Sequence record: PQ100635.1
Length of the DNA: 64,000 bases
Reading direction: 5' to 3' (one strand)
DNA from: Escherichia phage PNJ-9
Below are positions 14,155 to 44,595 of this stretch, piece after piece (positions within the stretch are counted from its first letter, which is position 1; each line of letters starts with the position of its first letter). The notes under the pieces are model-generated. The model ran no database searches and had not been told where the DNA came from. It was given only the letters and a program-made list of their open reading frames with translations. The translations under genes and the position numbers were made by a program.

Positions 14155-14325
14155 ATGCAAGTTAAATTATTGTACCGTTTATTAAAAAATGGCAAGCATG
14201 ATTGGTATTTGCTTATTAAAACCGATCCGAATTTTTTCTCTGGACAACCATTTACAGTTCGTCCTACTAAACGTCAGCTTCGCAAAGCTAAACGTTCCCA
14301 TCGTAACTTTTATAGAGAATATTGA
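14155..14325 (+). CDS. small basic protein, RPTKRQ-motif family (56 aa)
   Basis: ATG after GGGAAGAG RBS; C-terminal TVRPTKRQLRKAKRSHRNFY shared with 14750 and 44383 ORFs. Confidence 0.45.
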   Translation: MQVKLLYRLLKNGKHDWYLLIKTDPNFFSGQPFTVRPTKRQLRKAKRSHRNFYREY

Positions 14326-14326
14326 T

Positions 14327-14740
14327 ATGAATATTTCTGAAACTCGCGGTAAATGGTTCAAGATTGTTAAAGAAGACGAAGAACTCCAAGATAAGTTTCC
14401 TGAATTAAAGAAAGATACGATCATCAAGGTAATTGGTACTACTACCGAAGATGGTTATGGCGACCATGGCATTATCGAAGTGATGTTGAACACAGGTGAG
14501 AAACTTTGCATCTATGACCGTGATACTTCTCTTTGGTGCTTCTGGGAATCCCATTCAATAGATGAACTCGAAGAAATTGACCAAGTAGTTTGTGATGGTG
14601 GACTTGGCGAATTCGAAGGTGAACGTATTTCTTATGCTTTAGCTAAATTAGCCGCCCAAGAAAATAATGACGGTTATGAAGGTAATCTGATGCAAGCCGC
14701 AGCGGAATACATTGAATATTTAGAAAGACGTTTAAGTTAA
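14327..14740 (+). CDS. hypothetical protein (137 aa; pin-region)
   Basis: Internal ATG immediately after upstream stop; in frame with track ORF 14189..14740. Confidence 0.45.
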   Translation: MNISETRGKWFKIVKEDEELQDKFPELKKDTIIKVIGTTTEDGYGDHGIIEVMLNTGEKLCIYDRDTSLWCFWESHSIDELEEIDQVVCDGGLGEFEGERISYALAKLAAQENNDGYEGNLMQAAAEYIEYLERRLS

Positions 14741-14749
14741 GGGCTTATT

Positions 14750-14929
14750 ATGAAAACTGCATTATTTTTTGGCGAAAGAACAAACGGTCAAAAATCTTGG
14801 AAATTTGTTATAATTGGTGCTCCAAACAATCCGAACATGAGGACTTCAATCATTTCGGTAACACGTCCTACTAAAAGAATGATTCGCCAATACAAACGTT
14901 TCCATCGTGACTTTTATAACATTTATTAA
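14750..14929 (+). CDS. small basic protein, RPTKRQ-motif family (59 aa), below track threshold
   Basis: C-terminal VTRPTKRMIRQYKRFHRDFY. Confidence 0.4.
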   Translation: MKTALFFGERTNGQKSWKFVIIGAPNNPNMRTSIISVTRPTKRMIRQYKRFHRDFYNIY

Positions 14930-14931
14930 AT

Positions 14932-14939
14932 TATAAATA
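14932..14939 (+). promoter_or_regulatory. late promoter (TATAAATA) upstream of gene 49
   Basis: Exact T4 late consensus directly 5' of the hairpin. Confidence 0.5.
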
Positions 14940-14962
14940 CCCTTATCTAATATGGTAAGGGT
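14939..14962 (+). promoter_or_regulatory. hairpin sequestering gene 49 Shine-Dalgarno
   Basis: ACCCTTA...TAAGGGT 7-bp stem; right arm contains the SD, 5 nt before the ATG. Confidence 0.5.
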
Positions 14963-14967
14963 TTATT

Positions 14968-15441
14968 ATGTTATTATCTGGCAAATTATACAAAGAAGAA
15001 AAACAAAAATTTTATGATGCACAGAATGGTAAGTGTCCTATTTGCCACCGTGAATTAGACCCTGATGTTCAAGGTAACCATCTTGACCACGACCACGAAT
15101 TAAACGGGCCAAAAGCAGGTAGAGTTCGTGGGTTACTCTGTAATCTGTGCAACGCAGCAGAAGGCCAAATGAAGCATAAGTTCAACCGTTCCGGTCTTAA
15201 AGGACGTGATGTCGACTACCTCGAATGGCTTGAAGCTCTTCTTGCTTATTTGAAACAAGATTATTCTGATAATAATATCCATCCTAATTTTGTTCCAGAC
15301 AAAACTAAAGAGTTCTCAAGACTAGGTAAAGAGGAAATGATGGCTGAGATGCTTCAAAGAGGATTTGAATATAATGAATCTGATACCAAAACACAATTAA
15401 TAGCTTCATTCAAAAAGCAGCTTAGAAAGAGTTTAAAATGA
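14968..15441 (+). CDS. 49: endonuclease VII (Holliday-junction resolvase)
   Basis: 157 aa; MLLSGKLYKEEKQKFYDAQNGKC and HLDHDHELNGPKAG match T4 gp49 from memory. Confidence 0.85.
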   Translation: MLLSGKLYKEEKQKFYDAQNGKCPICHRELDPDVQGNHLDHDHELNGPKAGRVRGLLCNLCNAAEGQMKHKFNRSGLKGRDVDYLEWLEALLAYLKQDYSDNNIHPNFVPDKTKEFSRLGKEEMMAEMLQRGFEYNESDTKTQLIASFKKQLRKSLK

Positions 15442-15980
15442 AAATTGAAAAAGAAATTGAAGGATTAATTCATAAAACTAATAAAGATCTTTTGAACGAG
15501 AATGCTAATAAAGATTCTCGTGTTTTTCCAACTCAACGGGACCTTATGGCTGGTATTGTGTCTAAGCACATTGCCAAAAATACGGTCCCGTCTTTTATTA
15601 TGAAAGCACATGAAAGCGGAATTATCCATTTCCATGATATTGATTATTCTCCTGCTCTTCCATTTACTAATTGCTGTTTAGTCGATTTAAAGGGGATGCT
15701 TGAGAATGGATTTAAATTAGGCAATGCTCAAATTGAAACGCCTAAATCGATTGGTGTTGCTACTGCAATTATGGCACAAATTACTGCGCAGGTTGCTTCC
15801 CATCAATACGGTGGAACTACATTTGCGAATGTAGATAAAGTCCTTTCTCCTTATGTTAAACGCACCTACGCAAAACATATTGAAGATGCAGAAAAATGGC
15901 AAATCTCTGATGCGTTGAATTATGCCCAATCTAAAACAGAAAAAGATGTCTATGACGCGTTCCAGGCGTATGAGTTAATT
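15438..15980 (+). CDS. nrdD: anaerobic ribonucleotide reductase NrdD, exon 1
   Basis: N-terminal NrdD-like sequence; reading frame hits TAA at the start of the intron; boundary +/- a few nt. Confidence 0.75.
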
Positions 15981-16989
15981 TAATTCAGGCTCATGTAAAA
16001 CCGGTCTAAACGGGGAACCTCTCTAGTAGACAATCCCGTGCTAAATGTTCTTTTGAACTAAATGCCTAACGACTAACCGTGATGAATGTAGCGGTGTAGA
16101 ATAGAAGCTAATGCTATTCGAAACGGCCGGCATCGAAAGATGAAGATATAGTCTAATCTGCATGGCGACATGCAGCAGTCATCTTGTATAAATAAGATTA
16201 TCTTATGAATACGAGGTGAAACAATGAAATGGATAAAAAGACGTTGTACTAAAATAAAAGATAAAGACGCATTTACATACTTAGTTAAGTTTTCTAATGG
16301 TGACATTTATATCGGTTATAAAAAATTTAGAACAATTAAAAACAAGCCCACAAACTGGAAAACTTACACAACGTCATCTAAGTATATAAATGAACGCTTA
16401 AAAACTGATACACCTACTAAATGGATAATTTTAAAAACATTTGATAGTTATAAAGATGCATTAAAACATGAAGAAGAGGTCATACGTAAATATTTTTATA
16501 GCAAAAAATGTTTAAATAAATCCATAGGCGGTAAAAAGTTTTATAAGCATCCGGATACTGAAGAACATATTCAAAAATTAAGAGATGCTCATAAGGGTAA
16601 AGTGTTATCCGAATCTCATAAAAACAATATAAAATCTTCTGTAGCTGAATATTATGCTAAAAACGGAAGATCTAAGGAACATGTGCAAAATAATATCAAT
16701 AGTCGAAAAAGTAAAAAACAAGTATCGATAAAGCTTAAAAATAAAACTTTTAGAAGTTTTAAAAAAGCAGCGGAATATTTAAATTGCACTGAAAGTGAAG
16801 TCGAAACTCATCCTCTTGTTTTGAGTATTAAGACTACTATTCATAAAGTTCCTGAATATGTGGTTGTTGACGGTATTAAGTATACGTCTTATATAGAAGC
16901 AGCTAAAGCGCTAAATTTTCATCCTAGCACTATAAAAGAACGTTGCATATCTATGGACTATCCAAATTTTGTTGTTTCATATAAACGGG
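15981..16989 (+). mobile_element. group I self-splicing intron in nrdD
   Basis: Begins TAATTCAGGCTC and contains TCTAAACGGGGAACCTCTCTAGTAGACAATCCCGTGCTAAAT, near-identical to the T4 td-type intron core from memory; ends on G; boundaries approximate. Confidence 0.75.
16187..16194 (+). promoter_or_regulatory. late promoter (TATAAATA) inside intron
   Basis: Exact consensus 30 nt upstream of the intron ORF. Confidence 0.5.
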
Positions 16990-16994
16990 CATGA
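16224..16994 (+). CDS. intron-encoded homing endonuclease (GIY-YIG-like)
   Basis: 256 aa; Y..NGDIYIGY N-terminal motif; located in intron 3' region like T4 I-TevII; GAGGTGA RBS. Confidence 0.65.
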   Translation: MKWIKRRCTKIKDKDAFTYLVKFSNGDIYIGYKKFRTIKNKPTNWKTYTTSSKYINERLKTDTPTKWIILKTFDSYKDALKHEEEVIRKYFYSKKCLNKSIGGKKFYKHPDTEEHIQKLRDAHKGKVLSESHKNNIKSSVAEYYAKNGRSKEHVQNNINSRKSKKQVSIKLKNKTFRSFKKAAEYLNCTESEVETHPLVLSIKTTIHKVPEYVVVDGIKYTSYIEAAKALNFHPSTIKERCISMDYPNFVVSYKRA

Positions 16995-18300
16995 ATTTGC
17001 GACTCATGCTGAATATAATGATGAAGTAAATACACTTTTCAGCTCTAATGGACAAACGCCTTTTGTAACAATTACATTTGGCACGGGAACTGACTGGACT
17101 GAACGAATGATTCAGAAAGCAATTCTGAAAAATCGTATTAAAGGTCTTGGCCGTGACGGGATAACTCCTATTTTCCCTAAACTTGTTATGTTCGTTGAAG
17201 AGGGTGTCAATCTTTATAAAGACGACCCGAACTACGATATTAAGCAGCTTGCTTTAGAATGCGCAAGCAAAAGAATGTATCCTGATATTATTTCAGTTAA
17301 GAACAATAAAGCTATTACTGGTTCTTCAGTTCCTGTTTCTCCGATGGGCTGTCGTAGTTTCTTGAGCGTATGGAAAGATTCGACTGGTAATGAAATTCTT
17401 GATGGACGTAATAATCTTGGTGTTGTAACACTGAATCTTCCTCGTATTGCATTAGATTCTTATATTGGAACACAATTCAATGAACAGAAATTTGTTGAGC
17501 TATTTAATGAACGAATGGATCTGTGTTTTGAAGCTTTGATGTGTAGAATTAGTTCTTTAAAGGGTGTTAAAGCAACTGTAGCTCCTATTCTTTACCAAGA
17601 AGGTGCATTCGGGGTTCGTCTTAAACCTGATGACGATATAATTGAGTTATTTAAAAATGGTAGAAGTTCAGTGTCCCTAGGATACATTGGTATTCACGAA
17701 TTGAATATTCTTGTCGGACGTGATATTGGACAGGAAATTTTAACTAAAATGAATGCTCGTCTTAAGCAGTGGACTGAAAGAACCGGTTTTGCTTTTAGTT
17801 TATATTCTACTCCTGCTGAAAACCTTTGTTATCGCTTCTGTAAACTTGATACAGAAAAATATGGAAGTGTAAAAGATGTCACCGATAAAGGCTGGTACAC
17901 TAACAGTTTCCACGTTTCAGTAGAAGAAAATATTACTCCATTTGAAAAGATTTCTCGTGAAGCCCCATATCATTTCATTGCAACAGGCGGTCACATTTCT
18001 TATGTTGAACTTCCAGATATGAAAAATAACTTAAAAGGTCTTGAGGCTGTCTGGGATTATGCTGCACAACATTTAGATTATTTTGGTGTTAATATGCCAG
18101 TAGATAAATGTTTTACATGTGGAAGTACTCATGAAATGACTCCTACTGAAAACGGATTTGTTTGTTCAGTTTGTGGAGAAAGTGATCCTAAAAAGATGAA
18201 CACCATAAGAAGAACATGTGGTTATTTGGGAAATCCGAACGAACGCGGATTTAATCTCGGTAAAAATAAAGAAATCATGCATAGGGTTAAACACCAATGA
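16990..18300 (+). CDS. nrdD: anaerobic ribonucleotide reductase NrdD, exon 2
   Basis: C-terminal glycyl-radical motif RRTCGYLGN and Zn-site CFTCGS...CSVCG; frame continuous with exon 1 after splicing. Confidence 0.8.
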   Translation, partial: HEFATHAEYNDEVNTLFSSNGQTPFVTITFGTGTDWTERMIQKAILKNRIKGLGRDGITPIFPKLVMFVEEGVNLYKDDPNYDIKQLALECASKRMYPDIISVKNNKAITGSSVPVSPMGCRSFLSVWKDSTGNEILDGRNNLGVVTLNLPRIALDSYIGTQFNEQKFVELFNERMDLCFEALMCRISSLKGVKATVAPILYQEGAFGVRLKPDDDIIELFKNGRSSVSLGYIGIHELNILVGRDIGQEILTKMNARLKQWTERTGFAFSLYSTPAENLCYRFCKLDTEKYGSVKDVTDKGWYTNSFHVSVEENITPFEKISREAPYHFIATGGHISYVELPDMKNNLKGLEAVWDYAAQHLDYFGVNMPVDKCFTCGSTHEMTPTENGFVCSVCGESDPKKMNTIRRTCGYLGNPNERGFNLGKNKEIMHRVKHQ

Positions 18301-18767
18301 ATTATGATAGATTTTATCCTTGCGATTTTGTGAATGGCCCTGGTTGCAGGGTCGTTCTTTTCGTTACAGGTTGTTTGCATAAATGCGAAGGGTGTTATAA
18401 TAAATCAACATGGAACGCTAGAAATGGTATTCCATTCACTGGTGAAACACTAGAACAATTGATTGAATGTTTGAATAATGATTATATAGAAGGATTAACT
18501 ATAACCGGAGGAGATCCTCTCTATCCTGATAACCGAGATGTTATTCATCGCATTGCTCAAACAGTAAAAAATCTTTATCCCAATAAAAGCATTTGGTTGT
18601 GGACAGGATATAAGTTTGAAGATATTAAACAACTAGAAATGCTTAAATATGTTGATGTTATTATTGATGGGAAGTATGAGAAAAATCTTCCGACTAAAAA
18701 GATGTGGCGAGGATCAGATAATCAGCGACTTTGGTCAAATACCGATGGGGTGTGGAAACATGATTAA
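18297..18767 (+). CDS. nrdG: anaerobic RNR activating enzyme NrdG (radical SAM)
   Basis: 156 aa; CLHKCEGCYN CxxxCxxC motif; ATGA overlap with nrdD. Confidence 0.85.
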   Translation: MNYDRFYPCDFVNGPGCRVVLFVTGCLHKCEGCYNKSTWNARNGIPFTGETLEQLIECLNNDYIEGLTITGGDPLYPDNRDVIHRIAQTVKNLYPNKSIWLWTGYKFEDIKQLEMLKYVDVIIDGKYEKNLPTKKMWRGSDNQRLWSNTDGVWKHD

Positions 18768-18877
18768 ATTGAATTACATTATGGATACTATAAATGATAT
18801 GATTTTTCGTTTTGGTCCAGAATTTTATTCGCAGTATAGTTTGGTGTTTATCAATGCTTAGTTAATTAAGGGTAAAT

Positions 18878-19093
18878 ATGTATAAATTTCGTAAAGGTTT
18901 AGCTGATTTTCTTACAACTGTAACGTTCTTTTTGTTTATGGCAGTTGGAGCTATTTTTCTTATTCCTTTTACTGTTGTATTTTTCTTGATTAGTTTAATT
19001 TCTCCGGAAAAGGGTTTATCCTCCAGCGAATTCAATGAACGTTTGGACAAAATTACTAATAAACTGAATTCTGTTCTTGATAAAAAGGCTTAA
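18878..19093 (+). CDS. small membrane protein (71 aa)
   Basis: Hydrophobic core; AAGGGT RBS. Confidence 0.5.
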   Translation: MYKFRKGLADFLTTVTFFLFMAVGAIFLIPFTVVFFLISLISPEKGLSSSEFNERLDKITNKLNSVLDKKA

Positions 19094-19095
19094 TT

Positions 19096-19413
19096 ATGAT
19101 TAGTTTTGAGCGGTATGTGGTAGAGAGTTGGAAAGGTTTTGATATGTTCGGTAATGACTATTATTTTTACGAATGTAATCTAAATCCTAGTTTTTGGGCT
19201 GGACGTGAACGAGATCTCGAAGAAATTAGTGTTCGCGCCGAATTGTTAGGTGAACTGCCTACGGTTTATTTTACCTTTGATGAATCTGGATTTGTTATCC
19301 AGGTTTATTTTCCTGAAGAAAACTCTGGTGAGGATTCTGTTAATCCTCCTTATTGGGCTTACCAAGGAATTATTTCTCGTGGAACAAAACTCGAACTTAA
19401 AGAACAAGATTGA
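19096..19413 (+). CDS. hypothetical protein (105 aa)
   Basis: ORF with AAGG RBS. Confidence 0.5.
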   Translation: MISFERYVVESWKGFDMFGNDYYFYECNLNPSFWAGRERDLEEISVRAELLGELPTVYFTFDESGFVIQVYFPEENSGEDSVNPPYWAYQGIISRGTKLELKEQD

Positions 19414-19702
19414 AATTTATGGCATCCCTGAAGAAGTAGGACGTTGTCCCGGATGTTATACTGTTACAAAACTTTTAAAGGAGCTCAATGCTCCTTATAC
19501 ATTTTATAAAGTCCTCACTAATAATGGTAAGATTGAATATGACCGTCCTTTAATCGTATCTCTTGCTAAACGTGCAGGATTCACTTCACTTAATATTCGT
19601 TATCCTGTCATATTTTTAAATGATAAGAAACAAAGGAATATTGCAGAGTTTAAAAAGTCCTTGATTTCATTAGGATACGACTCTGATATCATAGAAGATT
19701 GA
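19409..19702 (+). CDS. NrdH/glutaredoxin-like protein; start codon unresolved
   Basis: IEIYGIPEEVGRCPGCY thioredoxin-fold active site; no ATG/GTG near domain start; nearest candidates are ATT 19409 or ATG 19280 with a long overlap. Confidence 0.4.
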   Translation: MEIYGIPEEVGRCPGCYTVTKLLKELNAPYTFYKVLTNNGKIEYDRPLIVSLAKRAGFTSLNIRYPVIFLNDKKQRNIAEFKKSLISLGYDSDIIED

Positions 19703-19810
19703 CCAGGTGCCGCCTGGTCTTCTTTATCTCATTTCTAATATAATCCATTGGAATCTTCACTTCACTATCTCCTTGTGCCCCTCTCAAATCGAAAATATTT
19801 TCATAAAACA

Positions 19811-19840
19811 GTTTACATCCTCAATAGATGTGTTAAGATT
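19811..19840 (+). promoter_or_regulatory. early promoter (GTTTAC, TAAGAT-type -10)
   Basis: Read directly; same variant at 49221. Confidence 0.45.
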
Positions 19841-19867
19841 AAACCATCTACTATAGAGGAAAATAAA

Positions 19868-20050
19868 ATGACAATTGAAGATAAAGAAATTAAGGTCGAC
19901 CAGTACTATTCTGTCAATGGTAATGCAATACAGATAACCAGAGTTTCAAGCCTGGATGTTTGGTACCGTTCAATCAAATATCCAGAAATTGGTGAAATGC
20001 TTTGTGACCGTGGTATCTTCTGTTCAATTGCGAAGGAAATTAAGCCATGA
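19868..20050 (+). CDS. hypothetical protein (60 aa)
   Basis: ATG after AGAGGAAAA RBS. Confidence 0.5.
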   Translation: MTIEDKEIKVDQYYSVNGNAIQITRVSSLDVWYRSIKYPEIGEMLCDRGIFCSIAKEIKP

Positions 20051-20295
20051 TTAGTTTAGATTCAAAGAAAGTTGTTCTAACTCTTAATGTAAACAACGAA
20101 CGTCCAGTATTCGTTACCATTTCCGATTTGCATGTTGAAATTGCTAATGGCGTCCGTACTTATCAAACGTCTAAAACACATTGGGACTATATCCCAATGT
20201 TGACGCTTACTCAGCGTTTAGAATCAATCGGTCTTAAAGACCTTTCAGTAAGTGAAATGAATTTTATCAAACGCATTGTATCAATCAACCTCTGA
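20047..20295 (+). CDS. hypothetical protein (82 aa)
   Basis: ATGA overlap start. Confidence 0.5.
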   Translation: MISLDSKKVVLTLNVNNERPVFVTISDLHVEIANGVRTYQTSKTHWDYIPMLTLTQRLESIGLKDLSVSEMNFIKRIVSINL

Positions 20296-20302
20296 GGTAC
20301 TT

Positions 20303-20596
20303 ATGGGTAAAACGTATCGTCGTAAAGATTTGAAAGTTCGTGATTACGACTATTTTGGTAAACGTAAAGCTCCTGACGGTGTTAGCCACAAAGACATGGT
20401 TGAAAACATTTTCCGCTCAGATAAATGGAAACGTATGAAAGGCGTTGATTCTGAAGTCAAGAACGAAATGAATCGACAACTCCGCAAAGAAGTTCGTAAG
20501 TTGAAAAAAGATGTTTACAGTAAAGAAGATTATGATTATAATACTTCTCATACTGAAGCCAAACGTAAAGCTAATGAATGTTATCGTTACAGTTGA
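20303..20596 (+). CDS. highly basic hypothetical protein (97 aa)
   Basis: ATG after TGAGGT RBS. Confidence 0.5.
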   Translation: MGKTYRRKDLKVRDYDYFGKRKAPDGVSHKDMVENIFRSDKWKRMKGVDSEVKNEMNRQLRKEVRKLKKDVYSKEDYDYNTSHTEAKRKANECYRYS

Positions 20597-20603
20597 GGAA
20601 ATT

Positions 20604-20738
20604 ATGAATATCAAACGAATGCTTTTTAAGCAGGGATTATATACTTTAAATGCTAATCCAAAGGGTGATACAACTAAATGGTCTGTAAATGACTGGATTA
20701 AGTTCATCGATGAAAATGGGGCGTGGAACACAAAATGA
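20604..20738 (+). CDS. small hypothetical protein (44 aa)
   Basis: ATG after GAGGAA RBS; in frame with track ORF 20511..20738. Confidence 0.4.
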   Translation: MNIKRMLFKQGLYTLNANPKGDTTKWSVNDWIKFIDENGAWNTK

Positions 20739-20935
20739 ATCCTGAAAATATTGTGTCATGGCAACTTCGTGAAGAACGTGCCGAATTCTTTGCCAATATG
20801 AAACTCAACGGCGTTGAGGATGAAGACTTTTTACGTTGGTTCTGGATTTACAAATACAAAGAATGTCAACATGCTGTGCTATTGACTTGCGCAACTATGT
20901 ACGAAGGCTGGAAAGGCGCTAAAAAGTTCGGTTAA
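20735..20935 (+). CDS. hypothetical protein (66 aa)
   Basis: ATGA-coupled start. Confidence 0.45.
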   Translation: MNPENIVSWQLREERAEFFANMKLNGVEDEDFLRWFWIYKYKECQHAVLLTCATMYEGWKGAKKFG

Positions 20936-20944
20936 TAATATACA

Positions 20945-36694: not shown

Positions 36695-37855
36695 ATGAAT
36701 ACCTTTAAAATCGGAACGAATTTTGATTTAGCTCTTCTTGATAAAATCGTAGAGCTCAATAAAACTTATCCTAATAGCTTGATAAACGAAGTATACGGCT
36801 CTACCAGAGAAATGGCTTTTGTAGCAGCCAGACCTGATTTTAGGCTTCCTGACGTTGACAAAAAGATGTTAGAAGATTACGTTAAACGTTGTAACGAATT
36901 AGGTATTTGCTTTAACTATACACTCAACACGATAAATCCTGGTTCAAAAAGAGAACTAGTTGAGTGGAAGAAGAAAGCTATTCAGGATTATGTTCAGTAT
37001 CTTTGGTCAATAGGCGTATGGCGTATTACTATCGCTAACCCTGTTGTTATGGAAATTGTTCGTGAAGTCAATAAAGACATTGAGATTGAAGTTTCAACAA
37101 TTCTACATGTCGATGCTGTAACTCAAATCAAATACTTGCATGACCAATATAATATCAAAAAGGTCTGCTGTGGAATTCATAAGAACCGTTCAGTTTCTTT
37201 CCTGAAGCGTGCAGCAGAGTTTTGTAATAAGAACAATATAATATTTGAAGTTCTTGTAAATGAGTTCTGTTCTAATGCTGGTAAAGGGTATACAACACAT
37301 TGTAGCTATCGTGACTCTTGCTATATTTTCCATAGCACCGATGTTACAGTAGATGATGCTAAATCCTTAAACGGATATCCAATGCAGCACTGTATTAAAG
37401 CTCGTGATACAGACCCATTTAACTGGTTGAGAACTCGTTTTGTTCGTCCTCAAGATTTGAAACTTTATAATGATATTGGTATCACTCAATTCAAAGTTTC
37501 AGGACGTACAGGTAGCACAGACTACATTTTGAAAGTTCTTGAAGCTTATGCTTCCGAAAAATTTGAAGGTAATTTGTTGGAATTGTGGAAGCCTTTAGAG
37601 ACCATTTTCACTCTTGAAAATGAGACCGAGTTTTCACATACGGTAAATATTGAAACCTCTTTGTTAGATGGCTTTTTAGAAAAAAGGTGGTTCAGACATC
37701 CAGATTTCGATTGTGCTAATGAAATCTGCGGGACGACGTGTACATATTGTGAAAGATATTATAAACGTCAATTATCTAAAAACGGGTTAGCAGAAAACTC
37801 TATATCTATTATTGATATAACTAACTCTGATGACGCTTTGAGGTACCCGGAATGA
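36695..37855 (+). CDS. TIM-barrel-like protein with C-terminal Cys cluster (possible peptidase-U32-family Fe-S enzyme)
   Basis: 386 aa; CANEICGTTCTYC (C-x4-C-x3-C-x2-C); loose resemblance to U32 family; function unassigned. Confidence 0.55.
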   Translation: MNTFKIGTNFDLALLDKIVELNKTYPNSLINEVYGSTREMAFVAARPDFRLPDVDKKMLEDYVKRCNELGICFNYTLNTINPGSKRELVEWKKKAIQDYVQYLWSIGVWRITIANPVVMEIVREVNKDIEIEVSTILHVDAVTQIKYLHDQYNIKKVCCGIHKNRSVSFLKRAAEFCNKNNIIFEVLVNEFCSNAGKGYTTHCSYRDSCYIFHSTDVTVDDAKSLNGYPMQHCIKARDTDPFNWLRTRFVRPQDLKLYNDIGITQFKVSGRTGSTDYILKVLEAYASEKFEGNLLELWKPLETIFTLENETEFSHTVNIETSLLDGFLEKRWFRHPDFDCANEICGTTCTYCERYYKRQLSKNGLAENSISIIDITNSDDALRYPE

Positions 37856-37936
37856 TTTCTAGAAAAACTTTTAACCACCAACTTAACGAAGAGATTTTGA
37901 CTATGAAAATTAACAGCAACGAACAAATTCTTAAAA

Positions 37937-37956
37937 AGGCCCTGATGGGCCTTTTT
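37937..37956 (+). terminator. rho-independent terminator
   Basis: AGGCCC-TGAT-GGGCCT stem-loop followed by TTTTT. Confidence 0.65.
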
Positions 37957-38091
37957 AAAACTAAAGCGGCTAAAGTGATTAAAGAACCTGTTTAATTGGA
38001 ATACTACGCTGATGCATTTCTTCATAGTGTTCTTGGAAGTATCGATGCTGAAGCTTTACGTTATATCAACATTGTCAAGAAATTCAAATAA

Positions 38092-38114
38092 GCTTTACGA
38101 ATTGAGTATATAAT
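38092..38114 (+). promoter_or_regulatory. middle promoter candidate (GCTTTA box, 11 bp, TATAAT) upstream of gene 42
   Basis: Read directly. Confidence 0.45.
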
Positions 38115-38133
38115 AAATTGTATTGAGGTAAAC

Positions 38134-38850
38134 ATGGGAAAACATAACACAATGAAATATATCAAAGCCGCAGATTTTCAAACCGCATTTAAAGCAGTCA
38201 ATCGTGAAATTTTAGAAAACCCGGAATTCGTAACTGATTCTCGTATTGGACGTTGTAATGAAATTGGGTCTATGACAGTAGTTGTTGATACCCCTTCATC
38301 ATTCAAAATGACCGACCCACGTATTAACCGCATCTCTTATGAATATGCCGAAGACTTCTGGAAATTTATGATTTCTGGTGGTACTGATGCAGAAGAAGCA
38401 TTTAAGGCATATCCTAATGTCGCTAAATTTATTTCTAAACCAAAATCAGATGCTTTGCCTGCGAACTTCAACACTTTCTATGGTCCTCGCATTGCGGCCC
38501 AATTACCAACTCTTCTAAAAGAACTTAAAGAGAAACCTAACTCTCGAAGAGTTGTGTTCCAAATTCTAGAAAGTTCTGATCAGGCTTTGCTTGATTCGGA
38601 TGAAACGCTTGAATATCCATGTACTGACTCAGTGACTTATTATATTCGTGATGGTAAGCTTTATACCCACTGTCATATGCGTTCTCAGAACTGTGCTGTT
38701 GTTATGCAGTTGGATTTTTATCTCCAAGGAAAATTACTTCATTATATCGCTAACGAATGTGGTGTAGAAGTTGGTGATTATACTCATACCATGGTAAGTG
38801 CCCATGTGTTTGAACGTGATTTTGATTATGTTAAAGGATTCCTTGACTAA
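38134..38850 (+). CDS. 42: dCMP hydroxymethylase gp42 (thymidylate-synthase fold)
   Basis: 238 aa; CTDSVTYYIRDGKLYTHCHMRSQNCAVVMQLDF aligns with T4 gp42 active-site region from memory. Confidence 0.8.
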   Translation: MGKHNTMKYIKAADFQTAFKAVNREILENPEFVTDSRIGRCNEIGSMTVVVDTPSSFKMTDPRINRISYEYAEDFWKFMISGGTDAEEAFKAYPNVAKFISKPKSDALPANFNTFYGPRIAAQLPTLLKELKEKPNSRRVVFQILESSDQALLDSDETLEYPCTDSVTYYIRDGKLYTHCHMRSQNCAVVMQLDFYLQGKLLHYIANECGVEVGDYTHTMVSAHVFERDFDYVKGFLD

Positions 38851-39749
38851 TGGCTATTTTCCGCGTACCTATCTTGAGTATGCGGTCTTATGAAACTGGT
38901 CAGTATGCTATCCTTAAGGATGGCAACTTCCAACTTCATTTGCACCGTGCTAATCCAGGTGATGTAATTACATATCCACGTAATGCATCTGATATTAAAG
39001 AATGTGAACGTCTTTTCCCAGAATTTAAGTTTGTTCCATTATGGTATAAAGATAACGCATATAACACTCGTAAATATTTCTGGTCTGAAAATGAATTTGT
39101 GGTTGATTCATTAATTGCTTATTATGATTGTGATTTTCTAATCACAGATATCACTGGATATGACGGCGCTTTTGATGTGGAATTCAATTTCAATATCACT
39201 GCAGACCCTAATAAACCACGTTTTTATATTGACGAATTCTTAAAAACCGATATGTTGTCGGTTAATCGTTCACTTCAAACTACTGTGTTGAATAAACGTC
39301 AAAAGGAAGTGCTGGTTAACGCTGGTGCCGATGGTAATAAGATTATCGTAACCCAGAAAGTTATACGTCCTTCCATCATGCAGCGTCTTGTAGGTGATTT
39401 GGCTCCTATTCATCTAGATGGTATTTTTCATCCATTTCGAATTAGTGACCCGTGCTATCGTTTTGAACAAGTGGTTGAATGTGCAATTCAATTAGGTCAA
39501 CCGCTTTATATAACCGATCCAAATAATAGCTTCGACAGAAATAAGTATCCTGAAGAAGCGCTGATTCGAATTTTTAAACCAACTAAAACTGAGTACTATC
39601 AAATTCTTAAAGGACGTCCGAAGATTCAATATTTCGAAAATCCTGAAGAAGTATTTCATCCAGGTCTTGGCGAGTTCATCTACTTTAACGCTTTAATTTC
39701 TTCGCCGTATAATATACCTAAATATGAAGATGTTGTAATCGAGGAATAA
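38850..39749 (+). CDS. hypothetical protein (299 aa) in the position occupied by beta-glucosyltransferase in T4; candidate DNA sugar-transferase
   Basis: TAATG-coupled to gene 42; no recognisable motif; functional call by synteny only. Confidence 0.55.
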   Translation: MAIFRVPILSMRSYETGQYAILKDGNFQLHLHRANPGDVITYPRNASDIKECERLFPEFKFVPLWYKDNAYNTRKYFWSENEFVVDSLIAYYDCDFLITDITGYDGAFDVEFNFNITADPNKPRFYIDEFLKTDMLSVNRSLQTTVLNKRQKEVLVNAGADGNKIIVTQKVIRPSIMQRLVGDLAPIHLDGIFHPFRISDPCYRFEQVVECAIQLGQPLYITDPNNSFDRNKYPEEALIRIFKPTKTEYYQILKGRPKIQYFENPEEVFHPGLGEFIYFNALISSPYNIPKYEDVVIEE

Positions 39750-39750
39750 A

Positions 39751-40299
39751 ATGGCTAAAATTATTTTAGTAGATGGCCCGGATAATGCTGGTAAAACAAC
39801 TTTCATTAATGACATAATGGAAATTAGTGAAAGATATGTAAAGATTGATTTCCCTAAACGAACAGTTGATGGACGTTTCGATGTTAAGTCTCGAAATGAA
39901 GTTGGCTGTTTCGAAACGATGTTGAATTATTTAGACCCTACTAAGATTTATCTGTTAGACCGTGGATATATTAGTAACTGGGTTTATGGACGTATTCGAC
40001 AAGATGCGGACTCGGTTCTTGACGTTTATGAACAGGATTATGTTCGTCTTTGCCAAAACCATGATGTGTTCACAATTATTTTAACACGTAACGAAATGAC
40101 TGAAAGTTTTGAAGACGACCTTATTACTTTGTCTTCGTTCGGTTTTAATACAGTCATTTCATATTTTGAAGAGTTTGCAATTCATAACGAAATCCAAACG
40201 TATCAATTACTTAATCATGATGGTGCTAACAAAGTTATAGGATTTAATGCAAGCGAACGTAATAATTTGATTACAGAAATTATCAAATGGGCTCGTTAA
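39751..40299 (+). CDS. P-loop kinase (thymidylate/deoxynucleoside-kinase-like)
   Basis: 182 aa; Walker A VDGPDNAGKTT and LLDRGY motif. Confidence 0.6.
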   Translation: MAKIILVDGPDNAGKTTFINDIMEISERYVKIDFPKRTVDGRFDVKSRNEVGCFETMLNYLDPTKIYLLDRGYISNWVYGRIRQDADSVLDVYEQDYVRLCQNHDVFTIILTRNEMTESFEDDLITLSSFGFNTVISYFEEFAIHNEIQTYQLLNHDGANKVIGFNASERNNLITEIIKWAR

Positions 40300-40320
40300 G
40301 AGCCTGTTTAAAGTTTTAAA

Positions 40321-40345
40321 TGCTGTATAACCCTTAGTATATAAT
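40321..40345 (+). promoter_or_regulatory. middle promoter candidate (TGCTGTA box, 12 bp, TATAAT) upstream of uvsX
   Basis: Read directly. Confidence 0.4.
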
Positions 40346-40398
40346 CGTCTTATCTTTTAAACATGAGTAAAATATAATGATGCCTATGGAAAAATACA

Positions 40399-41571
40399 AT
40401 GTCTGATTTAAAATCTCGTCTGATTAAAGCTTCTACTTCTAAAATGACTGCAGACTTGACTAAGTCTAAGCTGTTTAATAATCGTGATGAAGTCCCTACT
40501 CGTATTCCGATGTTGAATATTGCATTAGGTGGTGCACTGAATGCCGGGTTGCAATCAGGCTTAACTATTTTTGCTGCTCCTTCTAAACACTTTAAAACGT
40601 TGTTTGGACTGACCATGGTTGCAGCATATATGAAGAAATATAAAGATGCAATCTGTTTGTTCTATGATTCAGAATTTGGTGCTTCAGAATCTTATTTTCG
40701 TTCAATGGGTGTTGATTTAGACCGTGTAGTTCATACACCAATTCAGTCAGTCGAACAACTTAAAGTTGATATGACTAATCAGCTTGACGCGATTGAACGC
40801 GGTGATAAAGTTATTATCTTTATCGATTCAATCGGTAATACTGCATCTAAGAAAGAAACTGAAGATGCATTGAACGAGAAAGTTGTAGGTGATATGTCTC
40901 GTGCTAAGGCACTTAAATCTCTTTTCCGTATTGTGACCCCGTATCTGACTATTAAAGATATTCCGTGTGTTGCAATTAACCATACCGCAATGGAAATTGG
41001 CGGATTGTATCCTAAAGAGATTATGGGCGGTGGTACAGGTATTCTTTATTCTGCTAACACTGTATTCTTTATCTCTAAACGTCAGGTTAAAGAAGGTACA
41101 GAATTGACCGGTTACGACTTCACGTTGAAAGCAGAAAAATCTCGTACAGTTAAAGAGAAATCTACTTTCCCGATCACGGTTAATTTCGATGGTGGTATCG
41201 ACCCATTCAGTGGCTTGTTAGAAATGGCAACTGAAATTGGTTTTGTAGTTAAGCCTAAAGCTGGTTGGTATGCTCGTGAATTCCTTGACGAAGAAACAGG
41301 TGAAATGATTCGTGAAGAAAAATCATGGCGTGCTAAAGCTACTGATTGTGTAGAATTCTGGGGACCGTTGTTTAAACACAAACCTTTCCGAGATGCAATT
41401 GAAACTAAATATAAACTAGGTGCTATCTCTTCTATTAAAGAAGTTGATGACGCTGTTAACGACCTTATTAATTGCAAAGCAACAACTAAAGTTCCGGTTA
41501 AAACTTCTGATGCTCCGTCTGCAGCAGATATAGAAAACGACCTTGACGAAATGGAAGATTTCGATGAATAA
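40399..41571 (+). CDS. uvsX: RecA-like recombinase UvsX
   Basis: 390 aa; RecA-fold ATPase; position between 42 and 40; T4 UvsX is 391 aa. Confidence 0.9.
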   Translation: MSDLKSRLIKASTSKMTADLTKSKLFNNRDEVPTRIPMLNIALGGALNAGLQSGLTIFAAPSKHFKTLFGLTMVAAYMKKYKDAICLFYDSEFGASESYFRSMGVDLDRVVHTPIQSVEQLKVDMTNQLDAIERGDKVIIFIDSIGNTASKKETEDALNEKVVGDMSRAKALKSLFRIVTPYLTIKDIPCVAINHTAMEIGGLYPKEIMGGGTGILYSANTVFFISKRQVKEGTELTGYDFTLKAEKSRTVKEKSTFPITVNFDGGIDPFSGLLEMATEIGFVVKPKAGWYAREFLDEETGEMIREEKSWRAKATDCVEFWGPLFKHKPFRDAIETKYKLGAISSIKEVDDAVNDLINCKATTKVPVKTSDAPSAADIENDLDEMEDFDE

Positions 41572-41905
41572 TCTCGATGATTTAAATCTAGAAATCGTTG
41601 ATGAATCCCCTTCTTCGGAAGGGGAAGACATTCGCAAAGAACGAGTGTTTAATGAATCTCTTAAAATTATCCGTTCAGCAATGGAAAATGTCATTCAAGA
41701 GATTCTGATTACGCTTGAAGATGGTTCTCATCATATAGTCTATATTACAAAACTAGACTGGGTTGATGGTAAAATCGTAATGGACTTTGCAGTTCTTGAC
41801 CAGGACAGAAAAGCAGAACTTGCACCGCATGTTGAAAAATGTGTTACAATGCAAGTACAACAAGCTTTTAATGAACGGACCAAGAAAAAATTTAAATTCT
41901 TTTAA
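41564..41905 (+). CDS. 40: head vertex assembly chaperone gp40
   Basis: 113 aa from ATG overlapping uvsX 3' end; position between uvsX and 41 as in T4. Confidence 0.65.
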   Translation: MNNLDDLNLEIVDESPSSEGEDIRKERVFNESLKIIRSAMENVIQEILITLEDGSHHIVYITKLDWVDGKIVMDFAVLDQDRKAELAPHVEKCVTMQVQQAFNERTKKKFKFF

Positions 41906-41914
41906 GGAGTTATC

Positions 41915-43357
41915 GTGGTAGAAATTATTTTGTCTCATCTAGTATATGACCAGGCTTATTTTTCTAAGGTCTGGCCTTATATGGATTCTGAGTATTTTGA
42001 GCGTGGACCGGCAAAAAACGTCTTTAAAATTATAAAGAGCCACGTTAACGAATATAATGCAATGCCGTCTATCAACGCATTAAAGGTGGCTTTAGATAAC
42101 AGTTCTTTAACTGAAGCCGAATATAAAGGAACTTCAGATCTAATTGAAAAATTGGCTGATACTCCTGAAGACCACGAATGGTTGGTTAAAGAAACTGAGA
42201 AATATGTCCAGCAAAAAGCGATGTATAATGCTACATCCAAAATCATTGAGATTCAGTCTAATGCTGAACTACCTCCAGAACAACGTAACAAGAAAATGCC
42301 TGACGTAGGAGCTATTCCTGATATTATGCGTCAAGCACTTTCAATTTCGTTTGATAGTTATGTTGGGCATGACTGGATGGAAGACTATGAAGCACGCTGG
42401 CTTTCTTATCTGAACAAAGCACGTAAGGTCCCGTTCAAATTAAACATTCTGAATAAAATCACTAAAGGTGGTGCTGAAACCGGTACACTGAATGTTTTAA
42501 TGGCTGGTGTTAACGTTGGTAAATCTTTAGGCCTTTGTTCACTTGCTGCAGATTATCTTCAAACAGGTCATAATGTTCTTTATATTTCCATGGAAATGGC
42601 TGAAGAAGTTTGTGCTAAGCGTATAGATGCAAACATGCTTGACGTATCACTTGATGATATCGATGATGGTAACGTATCTTATGCCGAATATAAAGCCAAG
42701 ATGGAAAAATGGCGTTCAAAATCCACATTAGGACGTTTAGTAGTTAAACAGTATCCTACTGGTGGAGCTAATGCTAATACATTCCGTGCATTGCTTAATG
42801 AATTGAAACTCAAGAAGAACTTTGTGCCATCTGTAATCATGGTTGATTACTTAGGTATTTGTGGGTCTTGTCGTATCAGAGTTTACACTGAAAATAGCTA
42901 CACATTAGTTAAAGCTATCGCAGAAGAACTTCGTGCATTAGCAGTAGAATCTGAAACAGTTCTATGGACTGCAGCTCAAGTAGGACGTGCAGCATGGGAT
43001 GCTTCGGATATGAACATGAGCGATATTGCAGAATCAGCAGGTTTACCAGCAACGGCAGATTTCATGTTGGCCGTAATTGAAACCGAAGAACTTGCACAAG
43101 CTGAACAACAACTTATCAAACAAATCAAATCACGATACGGTGATAAGAATAAGTGGAATAAATTCCTGATGGGTGTACGTAAAGGCAACCAGAAATGGGT
43201 TGAGATTGAGCAAGAAGGCATGAACACACCTAACACAGTAAATGAAAACGCAGGTGCTCAGATGCGTCAGGCAGAGGTGAATCGTACGGAACGCGTAGGT
43301 AAAGCCAAAACAACCCGTGCTGACCTAGATAGCTTAGCCAATGAGTTAAAATTTTAA
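41915..43357 (+). CDS. 41: replicative DNA helicase gp41 (DnaB-like)
   Basis: 480 aa; Walker A GVNVGKS; GTG start after AAGGAG RBS. Confidence 0.9.
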   Translation: MVEIILSHLVYDQAYFSKVWPYMDSEYFERGPAKNVFKIIKSHVNEYNAMPSINALKVALDNSSLTEAEYKGTSDLIEKLADTPEDHEWLVKETEKYVQQKAMYNATSKIIEIQSNAELPPEQRNKKMPDVGAIPDIMRQALSISFDSYVGHDWMEDYEARWLSYLNKARKVPFKLNILNKITKGGAETGTLNVLMAGVNVGKSLGLCSLAADYLQTGHNVLYISMEMAEEVCAKRIDANMLDVSLDDIDDGNVSYAEYKAKMEKWRSKSTLGRLVVKQYPTGGANANTFRALLNELKLKKNFVPSVIMVDYLGICGSCRIRVYTENSYTLVKAIAEELRALAVESETVLWTAAQVGRAAWDASDMNMSDIAESAGLPATADFMLAVIETEELAQAEQQLIKQIKSRYGDKNKWNKFLMGVRKGNQKWVEIEQEGMNTPNTVNENAGAQMRQAEVNRTERVGKAKTTRADLDSLANELKF

Positions 43358-43363
43358 TAAAAA

Positions 43364-43383
43364 GGAGACTTCGGTCTCCTTTC
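43364..43383 (+). terminator. hairpin terminator (TTCG tetraloop)
   Basis: GGAGAC-TTCG-GTCTCC followed by TTT. Confidence 0.5.
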
Positions 43384-43386
43384 GGG

Positions 43387-43416
43387 GTTTACATCTCCCT
43401 CTAGGCATGATATGAT
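43387..43416 (+). promoter_or_regulatory. early promoter (GTTTAC, 17 bp, TATGAT)
   Basis: Read directly. Confidence 0.5.
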
Positions 43417-43445
43417 GTACTTACACTAACCGAGAGGAAAACATT

Positions 43446-43820
43446 ATGAATATGTCTCAAGCAATTTTTACTGCAATCACCGAAAACACAACTGTTGAAG
43501 TAGTTTCTCCGCTGGCAACCTACGTTATTCTTGCTCCTAAAACTATTGTATCTCGTATGGAAAACATGGGCAAACGTATCGTACAAATTGTTGGAGCCGG
43601 AAATCAAAAACTTGATTATCTGCGAACCATCAAAGCTTATGAACATTTCCAACTCGAAAAAGGTTCTCCTATCCAGGTAGAACTCGTAAATGGTGATATC
43701 GTTCGAGCAATGTTCCATCATTTCTATGCATTGAATGACCCATCTAAAGCAGTTCGTTTAATTGCATACGACGCAAACCAAAACGAAATCAACGCAGATG
43801 TATCTAAATTACGTTTTTAA
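43446..43820 (+). CDS. hypothetical protein (124 aa)
   Basis: GAGAGGAAAA RBS. Confidence 0.5.
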   Translation: MNMSQAIFTAITENTTVEVVSPLATYVILAPKTIVSRMENMGKRIVQIVGAGNQKLDYLRTIKAYEHFQLEKGSPIQVELVNGDIVRAMFHHFYALNDPSKAVRLIAYDANQNEINADVSKLRF

Positions 43821-43849
43821 GTTTACTTCTCCAGTAGTTGTGTTATTAT
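43821..43849 (+). promoter_or_regulatory. early promoter (GTTTAC, TATTAT) with perfect 12-bp dyad CTCCAGTAGTTG/CAACTACTGGAG
   Basis: Read directly; right arm overlaps the SD of the next gene. Confidence 0.55.
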
Positions 43850-43875
43850 AGACTTATCAACTACTGGAGAACAAA

Positions 43876-44193
43876 ATGAAAACCATCGATTGTAAAGCAG
43901 AATTTAAGATTTTTTATCACGGTTCAAGTAGTTCAGCTAACATCGAAAACATGCTTTGTCCTCCTGAGGAAACAGGAGTTCTGTCTGAAACTGGACGTAA
44001 GAAAAACTTGGATCGTGTATTCTTTACTGAAGATATCGGTTTAGCAAAGATTTATGCAGGACGAGCAGCACGCTCTTATGGAGGTGAACCACGTCTCTAT
44101 CGAGTAATTTCTCCGGTAGACGTAGTTCAAATGAATAATACTAAAGGTGCTACAGTTTATCACGCTGAATGGGCATTTTGCGAGGAAATATGA
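43876..44193 (+). CDS. Arr-like (rifampin-ADP-ribosyltransferase family) small ADP-ribosyltransferase
   Basis: 105 aa; FYHGSSSSANI and RVFFTEDIGLAKIYAG...EPRLYRVISP align with Arr motifs from memory. Confidence 0.5.
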   Translation: MKTIDCKAEFKIFYHGSSSSANIENMLCPPEETGVLSETGRKKNLDRVFFTEDIGLAKIYAGRAARSYGGEPRLYRVISPVDVVQMNNTKGATVYHAEWAFCEEI

Positions 44194-44381
44194 GCAAATT
44201 AACTAAAGTTACTTTTATCGGTTGGTTTAAAAGCGGCGAGATGTTCACTAAAGATATCATGTTATCAGGTGACCGTGAAGAAATCGAGTGGGTTACGGTA
44301 CAACTTGCTGAAGTGAACAAAGCATTAGTTAAAGCATTTGTTAATGACGAGAAAGTTTTTGAAGCTGATTTCAGAGGATAA
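44190..44381 (+). CDS. hypothetical protein (63 aa)
   Basis: ATGA-coupled start after GAGGAA. Confidence 0.45.
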   Translation: MSKLTKVTFIGWFKSGEMFTKDIMLSGDREEIEWVTVQLAEVNKALVKAFVNDEKVFEADFRG

Positions 44382-44382
44382 T

Positions 44383-44595
44383 ATGTATTCAACTGTGTTT
44401 AAACCATCAACATACGAATTTGCATCAACTACACAATGGAAAGCTCTTATTCTGGAAGGATGGGAACTAATGATGGACTGTGAAGCATCTGAAAAGTTTC
44501 CACACGGCAAAGTGGACTTCGTTAAATTTGCTGTACGTCCGACTAAACGACAGATTCGTCAAGAAAAACGCAAATTTCGCAAAAGTTTAAAATAG
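44383..44595 (+). CDS. small basic protein, RPTKRQ-motif family (70 aa)
   Basis: C-terminal FAVRPTKRQIRQEKRKFRKSLK; ATG after AGAGGATAAT. Confidence 0.45.
   Translation: MYSTVFKPSTYEFASTTQWKALILEGWELMMDCEASEKFPHGKVDFVKFAVRPTKRQIRQEKRKFRKSLK

Follow-up and report, generated by a model that had tools for sequence, protein, structure and literature searches.

Three short genes of Escherichia phage PNJ-9 very probably form a paralogous TifA/DUF7279 family, in which ORF3 is TifA itself and ORF1 and ORF2 are minimal versions that would likewise bind RNA but act together with another partner. The genes were identified in a 64,000-nucleotide stretch of sequence record PQ100635.1 (hereafter the window), which shows 98-100% DNA identity to Mosigvirus genomes and is assigned by that comparison to an RB69-like T-even coliphage (Mosigvirus). 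All features described below lie on the plus strand, and the coordinates of the three ORFs include their stop codons. Both the family and its basic C-terminal tail are already known, the former as Pfam DUF7279 and the latter as the experimentally defined RNA-binding helix of TifA.

Three Dispersed ORFs Share a Pfam Domain and a Basic Tail

ORF1 (14155..14325, 56 aa) and ORF2 (14750..14929, 59 aa) translate into short TifA-like (DUF7279) proteins, and ORF3 (44383..44595, 70 aa) corresponds to tifA (gp61.4) by translation and by its identity to RB69 gp61.4. All three exist and translate as a sequence-only reading of the window had described, and all three are annotated as coding sequences in related phages, ORF1 for instance in JS09. 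Each is preceded by a Shine-Dalgarno-like sequence, that of ORF1 being GGAAGAG. The C-terminal ends of ORF1 (...FTVRPTKRQLRKAKRSHRNFYREY), ORF2 (...SVTRPTKRMIRQYKRFHRDFYNIY) and ORF3 (...FAVRPTKRQIRQEKRKFRKSLK) have in common the invariant core R-P-T-K-R-x-x-R-x-x-K-R-x-x-R. The earlier description of the tails as near-identical is too strong, because ORF2 carries M in place of the motif Q and the FY ending is confined to the two short proteins, ORF3 ending instead in RKSLK.

The tail motif lies well beyond chance: the pattern RPT[KR][KR]..R..K[KR]..R has three matches in the six-frame translation of the window as opposed to none in 100 dinucleotide-matched simulated windows, and RPTK[KR] occurs on average 0.07 times per such simulated window. 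A DNA repeat or gene-conversion tract was considered as the source of the likeness and rejected, as the longest DNA words common to the ORFs measure only 12, 8 and 7 nt and the same amino acids at conserved positions are encoded by different synonymous codons (CGT/AGA/CGA, CCT/CCG, CGC/CGT), both of which point to similarity at the protein level.

All three proteins match Pfam PF23945 (DUF7279; a profile of 53 positions with a gathering cut-off of 24.5 bits) over essentially the whole domain, with 54.5 bits for ORF1 (E = 1.1e-14, profile positions 1-53), 53.8 bits for ORF2 (E = 1.8e-14, positions 4-53) and 72.1 bits for ORF3 (E = 3.5e-20, positions 2-52), which agrees with the proposal that small basic proteins form a dispersed family here. 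ORF1 and ORF2 align with each other over their full length (BLASTP/pairwise, E = 4e-11), and TifA is aligned to either of them by BLASTP in the tail only, while the profile matches span about 50 residues. Across 18 family members, the residues R, T, K, R, K and R of the tail are invariant, and the P and the second R of the KR pair nearly so. By sequence, ORF1, ORF2 and ORF3 are thus paralogous members of the TifA/DUF7279 family; a search of the window with an HMM built from the family yielded no fourth copy, the next-best match having E = 0.75.

Searches beyond the window delineate the family further. Comparison by sequence with solved structures gave chance matches only (E of 0.29 or worse), fold searches returned no informative relatives and zero NCBIfam models were matched. 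A word-indexed homologue search retrieved 17 proteins only, and the family is small, since just 28 clusters at 50% identity were found by an exhaustive profile search, in which a 1685-aa match made of six short stretches is probably spurious. A scan of IMG/VR found 11 loci, all of them T-even-like. Literature searches for DUF7279, PF23945, RB69ORF087c and RB69ORF089c found no publications, and those for TifA paralogues found only two Laub-lab papers and the papers citing them.

ORF3 Is Identical to the ToxN Inhibitor TifA of RB69

ORF3 is 100% identical to RB69 TifA (gp61.4), with H41 present, and by this identity is TifA itself. It lies directly downstream of dmd (44190..44381; Pfam PF17587, E = 6e-22, and RB69 annotation), which encodes the antitoxin against RnlA/LsoA; dmd ends at 44381 and tifA starts at 44383, the pair constituting the dmd-tifA early operon described previously (PMC9391042). 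An early-promoter-like site (TTTACT, 16-nt spacer, TATTAT, with TG; 43822..43849) is found upstream of an ORF040c-like gene, dmd and tifA, and another (TTTACA, 17-nt spacer, TACTAT, with TG; 44599..44627) directly 3' of the tifA stop codon, before imm.1. Both assignments are to be read as mere consensus matches, because promoter scans of the region gave site counts no higher than shuffled expectation.

Srikant et al. 2022 (PMC9391042) found that TifA inhibits ToxN, a type III toxin, and that the two proteins co-precipitate. The RB69 protein binds RNA directly, with a KD of 0.36-2.3 uM for 15-45-nt RNAs (PMC10853763, Guegler et al. 2023), and its in vitro affinity for ssDNA and dsDNA is similar to that for RNA; the nucleic acid that co-purifies with it is sensitive to RNase and insensitive to DNase (PMC10853763). 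Its tail, RPTKRQIRQEKRKFRKSLK (44536..44592), is the RNA-binding helix as defined by experiment (P53, T54, K55, R56, R59), in which the substitutions P53A/T54A or K55A/R56A/R59A abolish RNA co-purification/binding as well as ToxN neutralisation; RNA binding takes place via the PT-capped basic helix, and both the binding and the inhibition of ToxN require it (PMC10853763). The residues mutated in that work are the P-T-K-R and the second R of the RPTKRQIR motif flagged in the sequence-only reading, whose guess of a nucleic-acid-binding tail proves correct because the tail is TifA's published Pro-Thr-capped basic RNA-binding helix; the nucleic-acid binding shown there for RB69 TifA would extend to ORF1 and ORF2 through conservation. 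The accompanying suggestion of a targeting peptide found no support, and rather than a separate peptide the tail is predicted to be an amphipathic helix that closes a small folded domain at its C-terminus. In the AF2 model of TifA (pLDDT 78.6), strands at residues 2-6, 27-33 and 43-49 are followed by a helix at 55-69, and residues 7-26 form an insert modelled at low confidence.

Published data also bear on specificity. Residue 41, in the loop between strands 2 and 3, tunes ToxN inhibition, TifA homologues are specific for particular ToxNs, and TifA(RB69) alone neutralises ToxN strongly and restores plating on toxIN+ cells. Conservation within TifA is highest in the helix and lowest in the loop and strand 3 (PMC10853763). 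The family may include members without an anti-toxin role, as the six homologues tested besides those of T2, T4, T6 and RB69 neutralised no ToxN or TenpN (PMC10853763).

The Short Paralogues Flank pin

Some 30 kb away, ORF1 and ORF2 lie on either side of pin (14327..14740; Pfam PF10465, E = 3e-47), which encodes the PinA inhibitor of the host Lon protease and itself falls outside the TifA/DUF7279 family. The stop codon of ORF1 ends 1 nt ahead of the pin start codon, and ORF2 is the last gene ahead of a hairpin and gene 49. This terminator-like element (14939..14962), in which a T-rich run follows a 9-bp stem-loop, is recorded in OE5505, G53 and ATK48 as a putative terminator and likely marks the end of an early unit bearing ORF1-pin-ORF2. 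A 183-aa ORF (14189-14740) was considered as displacing ORF1 and dismissed, since T4 Pin aligns only from its residue 52 and the 5' extension of pin overlapping ORF1 is accordingly spurious. A 118-aa ORF upstream of ORF1 (13670-14026) was examined as a candidate anti-OLD gene 49.2 and showed zero similarity. In phiE142, pin, lying between the paralogous tails, is deleted, the tails acting as recombination substrates.

ORF1 is the orthologue of RB69ORF089c/JS09_097 and ORF2 that of RB69ORF087c/JS09_099. Close relatives differ in their short copies through gain and loss: T4 has neither, AV113 is without ORF2, and ORF1 is frameshifted in RB69. The two genes are under purifying selection, with pN/pS values, taken at pS up to 0.5, of 0.15-0.18 for ORF1 relative to AV113 and of 0.05-0.25 for ORF2. 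An ORF1-type protein was included in the published TifA alignment, and the ten homologues of TifA that Guegler et al. assayed include none of the short type (PMC10853763).

The tail of ORF1, RPTKRQLRKAKRSHRNFYREY (14260..14322), reads as a Pro-Thr helix cap followed by a basic helix, in which K39, R40 and R43 correspond to TifA K55, R56 and R59, and that of ORF2, RPTKRMIRQYKRFHRDFYNIY (14864..14926), as a Pro-Thr cap followed by a basic amphipathic helix. Every basic helix position and the PT cap are kept in both proteins, which carry a net charge of +10 to +11 in fewer than 60 aa. Among ORF2 orthologues from Mosigvirus, Tequatrovirus and Dhakavirus, 11 of the 15 helix positions are invariant as against two of eight in the loop and one of six in strand 3, making the tail, by alignment, the most conserved part of the protein. 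The AF2 model of ORF2 (pLDDT 87.7) places strands at 2-9, 15-22 and 31-36 and a helix at 42-58, in the same strand-strand-strand-helix order as the TifA model, and the full-length alignment of ORF1 to ORF2 suggests that ORF1 would adopt this fold as well.

Proposed Mechanism and Alternative Explanations

We propose that the functional core of the family is a Pro-Thr N-cap followed by an amphipathic alpha-helix, whose basic residues at i, i+1, i+4, i+7, i+8 and i+11 would form one solvent-exposed RNA-binding face and whose hydrophobic face would pack against a three-stranded beta-sheet. TifA, produced early from the dmd-tifA operon, binds both RNA and the ToxN endoribonuclease after ToxN leaves its toxI RNA antitoxin, and traps the toxin in an inactive ribonucleoprotein, in particular on 16S rRNA, allowing the phage to escape ToxIN abortive infection; each of these steps has been published for the protein identical to ORF3. 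ORF1 and ORF2 would represent the minimal fold, with the sheet, the PT cap and all basic helix positions in place and the insert between strands 1 and 2 missing. They may bind RNA as TifA does, with their differing loops engaging another partner, most likely another RNA-targeting host defence effector, and we infer a counter-defence role in which they bind RNA and are specific for a target other than ToxN. Their more precise assignment as RNA-dependent inhibitors of a non-ToxN RNA-targeting immune effector (TenpN, CptN or another defence RNase) is tentative. A counter-defence role of the short copies is supported by their position flanking the gene of a Lon inhibitor, by the OLD inhibitor gp49.2 encoded in the nrdC-49 segment of T4/T6, the segment that holds ORF1 and ORF2 (PMC13096335), and by a pattern of gain and loss typical of accessory counter-defence genes; the argument from proximity to pin and gp49.2 is a weak one, most early genes in this genome being small accessory genes.

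Three features, the family and RNA-binding helix common to the short proteins and TifA, the specificity of TifA homologues for particular ToxNs and the unusual ToxIN resistance of RB69-type phages (PMC9391042), could also be accounted for if ORF1 and ORF2 were additional ToxN inhibitors, redundant with TifA(RB69) or tuned to ToxN variants that it handles poorly. We consider this unlikely, as TifA(RB69) alone is enough for strong ToxN neutralisation, the short proteins lack the strand 1-2 insert and have a loop unrelated to that bearing TifA residue 41, and their genes belong to a separate unit 30 kb from the dmd-tifA operon. An improbable role, too, is that of general RNA-binding or chaperone regulators of phage or host RNA, as opposed to immune antagonists, acting for example on mRNA stability or on the translation of the neighbouring pin or gene 49: the strongly basic character of both proteins, their retained RNA-binding helix, the location of ORF2 directly upstream of the gene-49 hairpin and the failure of several tested TifA homologues to inhibit any toxin would all fit it, but the dispensability of the short copies in close relatives is better matched by host-specific accessory genes than by core regulators, and the pairing of a variable loop with a conserved helix suggests an evolving protein partner.

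The affinity of TifA for ssDNA and dsDNA in vitro means that the short forms may have some DNA-related role. As a wider account of the tail, however, a DNA-binding or localisation peptide (for capsid packaging or nucleoid targeting) in place of an RNA-binding one, which the earlier suggestion of targeting would also accommodate, is very unlikely: RNA is what TifA retains on purification, the models show the tail as a helix built into a folded domain, and the proteins, encoded by early genes, present neither a signal-peptide-like nor a capsid-targeting sequence feature. Finally, the probability that the motif is a low-complexity or DNA-level repeat artefact and the short ORFs are not translated is close to nil. 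The proteins are indeed very short, and the 183-aa ORF overlaps ORF1 in another frame; this longer ORF is nonetheless pin with a spurious extension, changes among orthologues are mostly synonymous at a pN/pS of about 0.1-0.2, the Pfam matches span the full domain, a DNA repeat is absent, the chance expectation of the motif is nil and a Shine-Dalgarno-like sequence precedes each ORF. The artefact without a translated product that had been envisaged beforehand is moreover contradicted by the published purification and assay of the ORF3 product (PMC10853763).

Significance

In hundreds of T-even genomes that serve phage therapy and research on defence, tifA and its relatives are still entered as 'hypothetical protein', and RB69-like phages carry up to three TifA paralogues each. 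New counter-defence activities could be sought cheaply in the two minimal paralogues, which are well-defined candidates and offer a natural dissection of TifA into an RNA-binding part and a target-specificity part. Were the assignment of ORF1 and ORF2 to a non-ToxN target true, the TifA-like family would be modular, pairing a constant RNA-binding helix with exchangeable loops; two or three specificities would be present in an RB69-like phage, and a second counter-defence island beside dmd-tifA would lie in the nrdC-49 segment. As recombination substrates, the paralogous tails also provide a route to loss of the intervening pin, as in phiE142.

Comparison with Known Systems

ORF3 and the TifA of RB69 are the same dmd-adjacent protein. 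ORF1 and ORF2 resemble TifA (RB69, T4, T2, T6) in the Pfam domain and in the RPTK(R/K)xxRxxKRxxR helix, including its RNA-binding residues, and ORF2 does so in its modelled strand order as well. Both are however 11-14 residues shorter and are missing an insert of about 15 residues between strands 1 and 2, where the connection measures about 5 residues as compared with about 20 in TifA. Their strand 2-3 loops (TDPNFFSG and GAPNNPNM) are unrelated to the TifA loop CEASEKFPHG, and they end in FY-x-x-Y whereas TifA ends in further basic residues. They fall into a different PHROG, with ORF1 and ORF2 matching phrog_3272 (E = 6e-27 and 2e-30) and TifA phrog_2375 (E = 1e-29), and they flank pin whereas TifA follows dmd. 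Under DUF7279 (PF23945), NCBI calls identical sequences 'DUF7279 family protein' and Pfam gives the function as unknown, although the member TifA is characterised; in nearly all phage records these genes are labelled 'hypothetical protein'.

Dmd (gp61.5) resembles TifA in being small, produced early by the phage and active against the RNase toxin of a toxin-antitoxin defence system (RnlA, LsoA), but it belongs to an unrelated family (PF17587) and neutralises the toxin by binding it directly, protein to protein, with no known RNA requirement. The TifA family also resembles arginine-rich RNA-binding helices and RNA-glue antagonists, in which a short basic helix gives RNA affinity and RNA mediates the inhibitory complex of a viral protein with a host effector; Guegler et al. 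drew the analogy to HIV-1 Vif-APOBEC3 (PMC10853763).

Three dispersed genes share a basic C-terminal tail

The three plus-strand reading frames at 14155-14325 (ORF1, 56 aa), 14750-14929 (ORF2, 59 aa) and 44383-44595 (ORF3, 70 aa), coordinates that take in the stop codons, translate as the sequence-only reading had described them. In a six-frame scan of the window RPTKR occurs at three sites only, one in each of these frames, and the wider pattern RPT[KR][KR]..R..K[KR]..R was found three times, against none in 100 dinucleotide-matched simulated windows. The core of the tail as first written, RPTKRQ(L/I)R..KR..R.FY, stands, while the full form proved slightly loose: ORF2 carries M instead of Q, and ORF3 ends in RKSLK, not FY. 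The longest DNA words common to the genes are 12, 8 and 7 nt, and in the alignment the conserved Arg and Pro are encoded by different synonymous codons across the three; their likeness is at the protein level. A Shine-Dalgarno-like sequence lies 5-8 nt 5' of each, and the respective counterparts in curated relatives are annotated coding sequences (RB69ORF089c/JS09_097, RB69ORF087c/JS09_099 and gp61.4). Changes among ORF1 and ORF2 orthologues are mostly synonymous (pS 0.37 and pN 0.06 for ORF1 against its AV113 orthologue; pS 0.15-0.51 and pN/pS 0.05-0.25 for the ORF2 comparisons). An artefactual reading of the motif or the ORFs is excluded.

Mosigvirus genomes (RB69/JS09-like T-even coliphages) match two 1.6-1.9-kb stretches around these genes at 98-100% identity. 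The window (G+C 34-39%) has the reverse orientation to the conventional T4 map, which puts essentially all genes on the plus strand. A 183-aa frame at 14189-14740, overlapping ORF1 in another frame, was rejected as a spurious 5' extension of pin because the alignment with T4 Pin begins only at its residue 52; the true pin start, 14327, is 1 nt past the ORF1 stop.

ORF3 is TifA and its tail binds RNA

[quoted passage not shown] TifA binds RNA via a basic C-terminal α-helix capped by a conserved Pro-Thr, with a KD of 2.3-0.36 µM for the RB69 protein and RNAs of 15-45 nt; with P53A/T54A or K55A/R56A/R59A, the protein no longer co-purifies with RNA, neutralises ToxN or co-immunoprecipitates with it, and TifA and ToxN are trapped together on abundant RNA, notably 16S rRNA (Guegler et al., NAR 2023, PMC10853763). 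Counted along ORF3, the mutated residues correspond to P-T-K-R and the second R in RPTKRQIR, so that the proposal of a nucleic-acid-binding tail was right and had already been demonstrated, with the RB69 TifA mutants, for this exact protein (PMC10853763). ORF3 is TifA, and its RNA-dependent trapping of ToxN has been shown.

Four years after its characterisation, virtually all the listed phage records still give tifA as a "hypothetical protein". RB69-type TifA (at least 95% identity) was found in only 68 records versus 145 for ORF1 (at least 80%), and is thus not carried by all Mosigviruses. Upstream of dmd, at 43446-44193, lie an RB69ORF041c-like ORF of 124 aa and an ORF040c-like one of 105 aa, both without a Pfam match. 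The product names given for this stretch in one RefSeq record include 'ADP-ribosyl transferase' and 'iduronate sulfatase'; neither name gained support from the analysis.

The short paralogues resemble a minimal TifA domain

ORF1, ORF2 and ORF3 all match Pfam DUF7279 (PF23945) over nearly the whole 53-position profile (E = 1e-14, 2e-14 and 4e-20), and an HMM made from 18 members of the family detected no further copy in the window. The PHROGs assignment is phrog_3272 for ORF1 and ORF2 and phrog_2375 for ORF3, with weaker cross-matches between the two groups. ORF1 and ORF2 align over their full length (36% identity, E = 4e-11), and BLASTP aligns them with TifA in the tail only, which is why a TifA tblastn search gives one place per genome. 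AlphaFold2 models place strands at 2-9, 15-22 and 31-36 and a helix at 42-58 in ORF2 (pLDDT 87.7), and strands at 2-6, 27-33 and 43-49 and a helix at 55-69 in TifA (pLDDT 78.6), the latter with a low-confidence insert (7-26) and a loop (34-42) that includes H41. An invariant Trp (TifA W27, W17 in both short proteins) recurs in alignments of 16-18 sequences. Together, profile matches and models show that the homology spans the whole small domain, of which ORF1 and ORF2 represent the minimal core.

Some identical sequences are already named 'DUF7279 family protein' in NCBI, and a short form from phage phiE142 (A0A0U4JDN8) stands in the Fig. 5C alignment of Guegler et al. (PMC10853763), so the homology was already recognised in print. 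Observation and interpretation in the sequence-only reading were both correct, and the family and tail function are already described. The searchable literature holds no match for the ORF1 or ORF2 gene names or the DUF, does not address three paralogues within a single genome and contains no short-form assay, the ten homologues assayed all being 70-95 aa; what the two minimal paralogues do remains testable.

The short copies are accessory genes

At E <= 1e-3 across 50,697 phage records, tblastn matched 222 records for the ORF1 type, 358 for the ORF2 type and 639 for the TifA type, all in T-even-like phages, and the whole family forms only 28 clusters at 50% identity (1.84 billion representatives searched). 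In Tequatrovirus OE5505 and Dhakavirus JS98 the only short copy is the one downstream of pin, Mosigvirus AV113 has ORF1 only, and in T4 the pin-gene 49 interval holds no gene and map positions 40-50 kb no family member. The short copies are accessory genes.

In the RB69 reference, an A7 run at ORF1 codons 10-11 (about 1200-1206 of the RB69 stretch L020) replaces the A6 of the window (14184-14189) and AV113; the resulting frameshift leaves RB69ORF089c annotated as a 38-aa stump. This may reflect a pseudogene, an error in sequencing or slippage at the homopolymer. The phiE142 'TifA homolog' (UniProt A0A0U4JDN8; 2440-2760 of its stretch L015) is an ORF1/ORF2 hybrid when compared with window 14155-14325 and 14830-15010: ORF1-like up to the shared ...CATCGT(A/G)ACTTTTATA stretch, it continues into the 3' end of ORF2, followed by the hairpin and gene 49, so that pin and most of ORF2 were lost through recombination between the paralogous tails.

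Possible functions of ORF1 and ORF2

The two short genes flank pin, whose product inhibits Lon protease. In T4/T6 the same nrdC-49 segment encodes gp49.2, for which recent work has shown inhibition of the OLD defence nuclease (PMC13096335); its slot in the window is taken by a 118-aa ORF (13670-14026, RB69ORF091c-like) that matches no Pfam family and is not similar to T4 gp49.2, a candidate for another variable counter-defence gene. A 9-bp stem-loop with a T-rich run (14939-14962) separates ORF2 from the start of gene 49 (14968); its counterpart carries a terminator annotation in related phages. In T4, gene 49 is preceded by a regulatory hairpin through which its translation from early transcripts is controlled.

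In all three proteins, basic residues at i, i+1, i+4, i+7, i+8 and i+11 form one helix face, as the sequences themselves show. ORF1 and ORF2 probably bind RNA through the same helix as TifA, a reading preferred over DNA-binding or targeting roles. RNA binding would also suit general RNA regulators; the pin and gp49.2 context fits counter-defence, by guilt by association only, and such a role is a tentative but reasonable proposal. As members of the TifA family the short proteins might be extra ToxN inhibitors, and a target other than ToxN is the more doubtful part of our proposal, in which the TifA-type helix would hold RNA while different loops engage another partner.

Compared with TifA, ORF1 and ORF2 are shorter by about 15 residues in the segment joining strands 1 and 2, and their strand 2-3 loops (TDPNFFSG and GAPNNPNM) are unrelated to the TifA loop CEASEKFPHG, in which residue 41 tunes ToxN inhibition. 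Comparison of the ORF2 orthologues of Mosigvirus, Tequatrovirus and Dhakavirus shows no variation at 11 of 15 positions in the helix, as against 2 of 8 in the loop and 1 of 6 in strand 3, the same pattern of constant helix and variable loop as that published for TifA (Guegler et al., PMC10853763).
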